Source: Escherichia coli
GTDB lineage: Bacteria > Pseudomonadota > Gammaproteobacteria > Enterobacterales > Enterobacteriaceae
Strand: one strand, 5' to 3'
DNA length: 64,000 nt
Assembly: GCF_017348835.2 (NCBI RefSeq)
Contig: NZ_CP071375.1
In this document: one piece after another, positions 3,131 through 3,785 of the stretch
Numbering within the stretch: position 1 is the first letter of the stretch
How the letters are laid out: each line of letters begins with the position of its first letter
Position numbers and translations under genes: made by a program
The notes under the pieces: generated by a model
The model's database searches: none
Seen by the model: the letters and a program-made list of their open reading frames with translations, nothing else
Told to the model about the DNA's origin: nothing

Positions 3131-3538
3131 TTATCTTTGCGTCTCTTGTTGCAACAATATCCGCCGTAAATCCCGCCATTCGGCTTCGTCCATGCTGTCG
3201 GCTGCCAGCCATAAATGTTGCCGTTTACCGCCATCAGAACGTAAACGCAGCATCATGCCGCTCTTAATCATCCACGGTGCTTTGACGATGCTCCACTCCT
3301 GCCCTTGCCAACGCAAACGCCCGTCCATCAACAAGCGAATTTCCCCCTGGCGAGCATTAATACGCCGCTGGCTGCGAACGCAATCAAACACCACCAGCGA
3401 AAGTAACACCATCCATAACGGGGTGTAACTGAGCGGCCAGGGCATGAGTAAAATAACAGCGGCAACCAGCCCATGAATCAGCAAGGAAAGCCACTGCGCG
3501 CGCCAGGAGACGCGCAAATCAGATTGCCACAGGACCAC
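3131..3538 (-). CDS. cptA: inner membrane protein CptA/YgfX (toxin-like partner of SdhE)
   Basis: 135 aa ORF with two hydrophobic helices, 20-nt overlap with upstream sdhE. Confidence 0.9.
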
Positions 3539-3785
3539 GTTCCCGGTTCCGTGTCTGGATGAGTCGGACCATCATTTCCAGTACTGCATCGGCCGGTTTA
3601 CCGTGATTCATCAGCCAGTTAAACAGGTCCGGATCGTCACATTCCAGCAGACGAATAAAGATGCGTTTTTCGTCATCGCTTAAGCTGTCATACTCATGTT
3701 CGAAAAACGGCATGATTGAAATATCGAGTTCGCGCATACCACGGCGGCATGCCCAATGAATGCGGGCTTTGTTGTTAATGTCCAT
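3519..3785 (-). CDS. sdhE: FAD assembly factor SdhE (YgfY/CptB)
   Basis: 88 aa [24 protein letters not shown]... Confidence 0.9.

Follow-up and report, generated by a model that had tools for sequence, protein, structure and literature searches.

The genes sdhE and ygfX (ygfY-ygfX or cptB-cptA in other nomenclatures) form a small overlapping pair that has been described both as a flavinylation factor with its neighbor and as a toxin-antitoxin (TA) system. The question raised by this locus is which of these descriptions fits the chromosomal copy in Escherichia coli, and whether the overlap between the two genes is a property of the genes or of their annotation. We addressed this question for the copy found in the window, that is, the whole 64-kb stretch of E. 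coli DNA that was analyzed, using comparisons with complete genomes, protein families, structure prediction and the published work on homologous pairs.

Organization and identity of the gene pair

Two open reading frames (ORFs) on the minus strand exactly fill positions 3131-3785. The upstream ORF, sdhE (ygfY/cptB; 3519-3785, minus strand), begins with ATG, ends with TGA and has 88 codons, giving a protein of 88 amino acids. The downstream ORF, ygfX (cptA; 3131-3538, minus strand), begins with GTG, ends with TAA and encodes 135 amino acids. The two share 20 nt, GTGGTCCTGTGGCAATCTGA (3519-3538, minus strand), which hold the last six codons and the stop codon of sdhE and also codons 1-7 of ygfX, the reading frame of ygfX being +1 relative to that of sdhE. 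A sequence-only reading of this DNA had described an 88-aa SdhE gene overlapping the gene downstream by 20 nt. The ORF positions match that description, which is exact in its coordinates, in both lengths and in the overlap; it had left out the strand.

The identification of the pair as sdhE-ygfX was borne out by Pfam, NCBIfam, identity to the K-12 proteins and RefSeq gene names. SdhE matched the Pfam family Sdh5 (PF03937; E = 1.7e-25, 89.2 bits against a cut-off of 27) and, over residues 1-88 of 88, the NCBIfam SdhE equivalog (NF008130; 195.2 bits against a cut-off of 120). It is identical at 87 of 88 residues to the crystallized E. coli SdhE (PDB 1x6i, 6c12 and 6b58). The RGxxE motif of SdhE, read from the translation as R15-G16-M17-R18-E19, is encoded at 3729-3743 (minus strand). 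Residues R15, G16 and E19 were invariant among 28 paired homologues, and G16 and E19 are residues that were mutated in PMC8621075. YgfX matched the Pfam family Cpta_toxin (PF07254; E = 6.6e-50, 169.1 bits against a cut-off of 27.3), with positions 1-132 of the 133 in the profile aligned to YgfX residues 2-131.

The neighbors of the pair are xerD, fldB (convergent), ygfZ (divergent) and trhA. These neighbors, the GTG start and the 20-nt overlap are all shared with sdhE (b2897)-ygfX (b2896) of K-12 MG1655, where RefSeq places the genes at 3040416-3040823 and 3040804-3041070, and the RefSeq annotation of strain PE164 has the same geometry with the same 20-nt overlap. The locus differs from that of MG1655 at 13 nucleotides in 961 bp; the differences in ygfX are four synonymous ones. 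Alignment to K-12 had been proposed as a sufficient check of identity, and it was passed in full by YgfX (135/135 identical). The agreement of SdhE was not perfect (87/88), the exception being a glutamate to valine substitution at residue 68 (E68V) that is considered below. We conclude that the locus is the familiar, much-studied sdhE-ygfX operon of E. coli with nothing new hidden in it; published work and standard annotation already contain the gene pair, the overlap and both functional labels.

Distribution and synteny

A 951-bp query spanning the locus matched 5,425 of the 5,426 complete E. coli genomes; the median number of places per genome was one, and the matched places carry the RefSeq names ygfX, sdhE and fldB. 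There was a single genome with no match. In one other case a second copy of the locus was found, in a sequence record classed as a plasmid.

To look beyond E. coli we used a set of 80 species-representative Enterobacteriaceae genomes, with YgfX identities of 71-99%, obtained from a search with an alignment of six YgfX sequences. The genera sampled included Escherichia, Citrobacter, Salmonella, Enterobacter, Klebsiella, Kosakonia, Kluyvera, Cedecea, Siccibacter and others. This search returned Enterobacteriaceae only, and nine more distant relatives (28-50% identity) were sampled one by one. We found ygfX directly downstream of sdhE and on the same strand in the window, in all 78 Enterobacteriaceae loci that could be scored and in all nine distant representatives. 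The arrangement in which ygfZ diverges from sdhE-ygfX and fldB converges on it is kept across the Enterobacteriaceae and out to YgfX identities of 28-50%.

The larger block of ygfZ (divergent), sdhE-ygfX, fldB (convergent) and xerD is conserved well beyond the Enterobacteriaceae. Some distant relatives have a response-regulator/histidine-kinase pair, queG or rsmI in the place of fldB. The YgfX family as a whole is small, with 133 representatives (at 50% identity) detected at E ≤ 1e-3 among 1.84 billion proteins.

sdhE-ygfX compared with toxin-antitoxin systems

SdhE is a small helical FAD-assembly factor that, we take it from what is established for E. coli SdhE, binds SdhA and FrdA and promotes the covalent attachment of FAD. 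The competing description makes the pair a true type IV TA system. CptA (YgfX) would then be a membrane toxin that blocks the polymerization of FtsZ and MreB and is counteracted by CptB (SdhE), and the overlap would serve to have the antitoxin always made along with the toxin. As cited in later papers, Masuda et al. 2012 reportedly found that overexpression of YgfX in E. coli inhibits growth and FtsZ/MreB polymerization, and that YgfY relieves this inhibition. That overexpression phenotype speaks for a TA system, as do the name of the Pfam family (Cpta_toxin) and the organization confirmed here, with a bicistronic geometry, small proteins and the "antitoxin" upstream; two adjacent, co-oriented genes are what is expected of a type IV TA pair. 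In addition, the homologous pair of Acinetobacter baumannii has been described as a TA system (PMC8132199).

Several observations point the other way. In Serratia there is no TA phenotype even though the two proteins interact (PMC3985639), and this direct interaction between SdhE and YgfX would contradict the definition of a type IV system, in which the antitoxin acts without binding the toxin. In Shewanella the ∆ygfY mutant is viable, ∆ygfYX is not rescued, and toxicity persists when the two genes are co-expressed (PMC8621075). A housekeeping role of SdhE that is independent of any TA function has been proven structurally. The current RefSeq product name is the neutral "protein YgfX", and the PADLOC defense models gave no match to the locus.

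The distribution of the locus also argues against a TA module. TA modules are typically mobile and patchy, and an accessory, patchy, multi-copy or mobile distribution is typical, although not strictly defining, of them. We found instead that sdhE-ygfX is core, single-copy and syntenic. The type IV class is defined by the CbtA-CbeA pair (YeeV-YeeU). FtsZ and MreB are likewise the claimed targets of that pair, and reviews give both pairs the same TA-type label. CbtA-CbeA is prophage-borne, multi-copy and accessory, and its proteins are not known to be related in sequence to SdhE and YgfX. In contrast, sdhE-ygfX is a core, single-copy pair in conserved surroundings, and SdhE has a separate housekeeping function. 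A survey of E. coli found CptA_toxin to be prevalent, at ≥80%, in all of the sequence types studied (PMC10790755).

Taken together, it seems unlikely that this locus is a genuine TA system. The dual label given to the pair by the sequence-only reading, flavinylation factor and TA-like, thus stands insofar as both descriptions are in the literature; the TA description is contested rather than established, with no TA behavior in Serratia or Shewanella.

YgfX as a probable membrane partner of SdhE

We think, with a probability of about 0.9, that the locus is a chromosomal housekeeping sdhE-ygfX operon, in which expression of ygfX would be coupled to translation of sdhE and YgfX would serve SdhE as a partner in the membrane. 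Co-transcription of the two genes is known from Serratia (PMC5042078), Shewanella (PMC8621075) and Acinetobacter (PMC8132199), and the interaction of SdhE with YgfX is known from Serratia (PMC5042078, PMC3985639). In the sdhEygfX operon of Serratia sp. ATCC 39006 (McNeil et al. 2012, 2013; Hampton et al. 2016, PMC5042078), a SdhE flavinylation factor is likewise followed by a co-transcribed, interacting membrane protein YgfX, and regulation by FlhDC, RsmA and RsmC has been described for that operon. The ygfY-ygfX pair of Shewanella oneidensis (SO_1339/SO_1340) has the same families in the same order and is co-transcribed, but it reportedly acts neither as a TA system nor in the flavinylation of SDH (PMC8621075). 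In the reading best supported by this literature, YgfX would be an inner-membrane protein that partners SdhE in an accessory or a regulatory capacity, and its toxicity would appear only upon overexpression, so that it would not be a dedicated toxin.

The downstream product had been called a two-helix membrane protein, and both the hydropathy profile, which has two hydrophobic segments, and an AlphaFold2 model agree with this. The first predicted transmembrane helix (TM1), at a hydropathy peak, comprises residues 12-31 (3446-3505, minus strand). The second helix comprises residues 36-62 (3353-3433, minus strand), of which approximately 36-56 would span the membrane. The remainder, residues 65-135 (3134-3346, minus strand), is predicted to be a C-terminal cytoplasmic domain of six beta strands and a C-terminal helix. 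The model, built with 40 homologues, had a pLDDT of 93.4 and a pTM of 0.74, and in it a strand at residues 2-8 precedes the two helices, six strands lie within residues 65-112, and the C-terminal helix covers residues 118-134.

In the model of YgfX, seven strands form a beta sandwich and the C-terminal helix caps it, which is the arrangement of a pleckstrin homology (PH)-like domain. We infer from the model that YgfX may be a PH-like domain interrupted, after strand 1 and before strands 2-7, by a two-helix membrane hairpin. A Foldseek search of the PDB with the model found no match at E < 0.06, and the weak matches included the PH domains of GRK2 and Rtt106. Identity to YgfX was 7-13% for the PH-like Ran-binding domain of RanBP3 (2y8f) and the PH domains of Osh3 (4iap) and Grp1 (1u2b); unlike these domains, the predicted YgfX has a transmembrane hairpin between strand 1 and strand 2. 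A Pfam scan of YgfX at E ≤ 10 gave no PH family, only Cpta_toxin and a chance match to DUF7071; a sequence search of the PDB with YgfX gave nothing meaningful; and our literature search found no paper linking YgfX to a PH-like fold.

A more specific version of the partner reading is that synthesis of YgfX is obligatorily coupled to that of SdhE, and that YgfX is an anchored, split PH-like protein that docks or regulates SdhE near SDH and FRD and is no toxin. We offer this version tentatively and would not back it at even odds. AlphaFold2 modeling of a linker fusion, SdhE-(GGGGS)5-YgfX, with 28 genome-paired sequences produced no confident complex (pTM 0.47, with pLDDT below 50 for SdhE residues 1-15).

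Conservation of the overlap and the start of ygfX

The GTG start codon and the 20-nt overlap were present in 78 of the 78 scorable Enterobacteriaceae species. Among the nine distant relatives there were overlaps of 29, 20, 20, 20, 20, 20, 26 and 14 nt and one gap of 30 nt; the 20-nt overlap was thus retained in five of the nine, down to approximately 38% YgfX identity. In Shewanella, ygfY and ygfX are separated by a gap of 37 bp with no overlap (PMC8621075). Based on the overlaps in the distant relatives and the gap in Shewanella, the 20-nt overlap is the modal state and is probably ancestral, although it is not obligatory.

We measured synonymous constraint as entropy at third codon positions. 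In sdhE the value was 1.13 bit over codons 1-77, dropping to 0.25 bit over codons 78-82 and to 0.11 bit over codons 83-88; the lowest value in any other 5-codon window of the gene was 0.70 bit. In ygfX it was 0.03 bit over codons 1-7 compared to 1.29 bit over codons 8-43. Synonymous variation in sdhE therefore falls away 16 nt before the ygfX GTG and stays low up to and including the sdhE stop codon.

An overlap of this kind could arise from annotation if the true start of ygfX were downstream of the sdhE stop codon, at the TTG that is codon 8 or at Met32. As start codons go, GTG is one of the less common, the Shine-Dalgarno match upstream of it is weak, and codon 8 of the E. coli gene, just past the sdhE stop, is indeed TTG. 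However, in other genera codon 8 is CTG, TTA, CTT, CTC or ATA, so that no start codon is conserved there, and the next ATG, Met32, falls within TM1. At the position aligned with the GTG, several distant homologues use ATG. Residues 1-8 are kept as protein in homologues down to approximately 27% identity: the N-terminal pattern M-V-x-W-Q-x-x-L-R-x-S was conserved across 40 diverse homologues, and the Cpta_toxin profile begins at residue 2. The predicted model places these residues, with confidence, in a beta strand that belongs to the cytoplasmic domain. The overlap would thus encode the first strand of the PH-like domain, which would account for the conservation of the YgfX N-terminus as protein. 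We consider an annotation artefact very improbable, and conclude that the overlap is a selected feature of the locus.

Initiation of ygfX translation

The drop in synonymous entropy begins 16 nt ahead of the dual-coding segment, and dual coding alone therefore does not explain it. The additional stretch, ACACGGAACCGGGAAC (3539-3554, minus strand), lies within sdhE directly upstream of the ygfX GTG. These 16 nt are single-coding, have a synonymous entropy of 0.25 bit, retain two rare CGG codons, and contain weak Shine-Dalgarno-like bases (GGAA/GGGA). The simplest reading of this pattern is that ACACGGAACCGGGAAC may be the translation-initiation region of ygfX, embedded in sdhE.

As a ribosome binding site this region is weak. 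Its predicted duplex with the anti-Shine-Dalgarno sequence has an energy of -4.3 kcal/mol, which is equaled by 16% of random sites. Folding of the mRNA across the junction gave no significant structure (z = -0.41). We found neither a strong Shine-Dalgarno sequence nor a significant mRNA structure at the sdhE/ygfX junction that would support a specific coupling mechanism; because there is no significant fold, no mechanism based on a specific structure can be claimed.

A weak site and a GTG inside the upstream gene are what would be expected if ygfX relies for its translation on ribosomes that have already loaded onto sdhE. In such a scheme, with the GTG 20 nt before the end of the sdhE stop codon and only the weak Shine-Dalgarno-like sequence in sdhE codons 78-82 ahead of it, ribosomes translating or terminating sdhE would feed the ygfX start. 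Expression of ygfX may in this way be coupled to translation of sdhE, and it is probably lower than that of sdhE.

A role of the overlap in programmed +1 frameshifting to make an SdhE-YgfX fusion protein is scarcely credible: fused SdhE+YgfX proteins of 166-217 amino acids are present in metagenome and run-assembly sets, but they are mostly singletons, some have internal deletions, and their junctions differ (RERG|LWQ, RGPV|QSD, PVAI|DLR), these varied places fitting independent indels or sequencing errors and not one programmed site, while no slippery or shift-prone motif was noticed and two intact ORFs are universal in finished genomes. The fusions that would speak for frameshifting have 207-217 amino acids. 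The fused proteins are P0002, P0003, P0005, P0008-P0010, P0013 and P0022.

Sequences flanking the operon

Upstream of sdhE there is a Shine-Dalgarno-like AGGAAG (3789-3794, minus strand), 3 nt from the ATG and conserved in 77 related loci, with a predicted anti-Shine-Dalgarno duplex energy of -4.3 kcal/mol. Footprinting across 77 Enterobacteriaceae loci identified a conserved block at approximately 3817-3834, inside which lies TACAAT (3821-3826, minus strand), a candidate -10 hexamer for an sdhE-ygfX promoter; the -35 element that would go with it is poor. A second conserved block, ATATTCCCGTAAAA, was found in the same 77 loci at approximately 3843-3857. There are further conserved blocks in the region 3930-3993, among them blocks near 3950-3993 that lie nearer ygfZ. 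The blocks in the sdhE-ygfZ spacer are candidates for promoters or operators serving ygfZ and the divergently oriented sdhE-ygfX. A scan for consensus promoters found no sigma-70 site, and none of the blocks in this spacer was matched.

At the other end of the operon, the 39-nt spacer between the convergent stop codons of ygfX and fldB contains a predicted RNA hairpin (3098-3127) with stems of 7 bp and 3 bp. The 71-nt context of this hairpin has a folding energy of -23.5 kcal/mol (z = -3.2). The hairpin is U-rich on the fldB (plus-strand) side only, and it probably acts as a terminator that the two genes share or that works in both directions. A terminator scan missed it owing to the geometry of its loop.

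Other candidate elements in this part of the window were rejected. Two "terminator-like" matches inside ygfX were no more than shuffled sequence gives. An Rfam scan of positions 2400-4200 gave nothing above threshold; a match to RT-4 within ygfZ (4084-4189, plus strand) scored 25.9 bits against a threshold of 73.5 (E = 0.083) and was attributed to chance. The antisense and flanking ORFs at 2967-3428 and 3760-3951 (both plus strand) had no Pfam match and were treated as spurious.

A private substitution in SdhE

The one difference between this SdhE and that of K-12 is at codon 68 (3582-3584, minus strand), which is GTA (Val) here and GAA (Glu) in both K-12 and PE164, the single-nucleotide change being at 3583. 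Over the entire 64-kb window, only two positions, 3583 and 34319, differ from E. coli PE164 (NZ_CP114128.1), and 3583 is the sole difference within approximately 6 kb. Of the 5,425 complete E. coli genomes with the locus, none had an exact match to the 81 bp around 3583. In the Enterobacteriaceae set, SdhE position 68 was E in 55 cases, Q in 13, D in 4, G in 3, N in 2 and S in 1, and never Val. Residue 68 is not mentioned in PMC5773532 or PMC9557727, which deal with the structure and mechanism of SdhE-flavoprotein complexes. The effect of E68V on SdhE is probably small, and a real mutation and a sequencing error at this position look the same.

The second difference from PE164, at 34319, lies in an ORF at 33814-34743 (plus strand) and gives a G169D change in a hypothetical protein of 309 amino acids. 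The accessory gene that contains it was found in 57 of 5,426 genomes, and the allele present in the window was in none of the 57.

Implications

The private E68V substitution in SdhE of this strain is a modest addition to what is known of the locus. The constraint on the 20-nt overlap and on the 16 nt preceding it supports the annotated GTG start of ygfX and suggests that the two genes are translationally coupled. The core, syntenic distribution of sdhE-ygfX, together with a YgfX that is predicted to be a membrane-anchored PH-like protein, argues that the automated "toxin CptA" labels used in TA surveys deserve caution.
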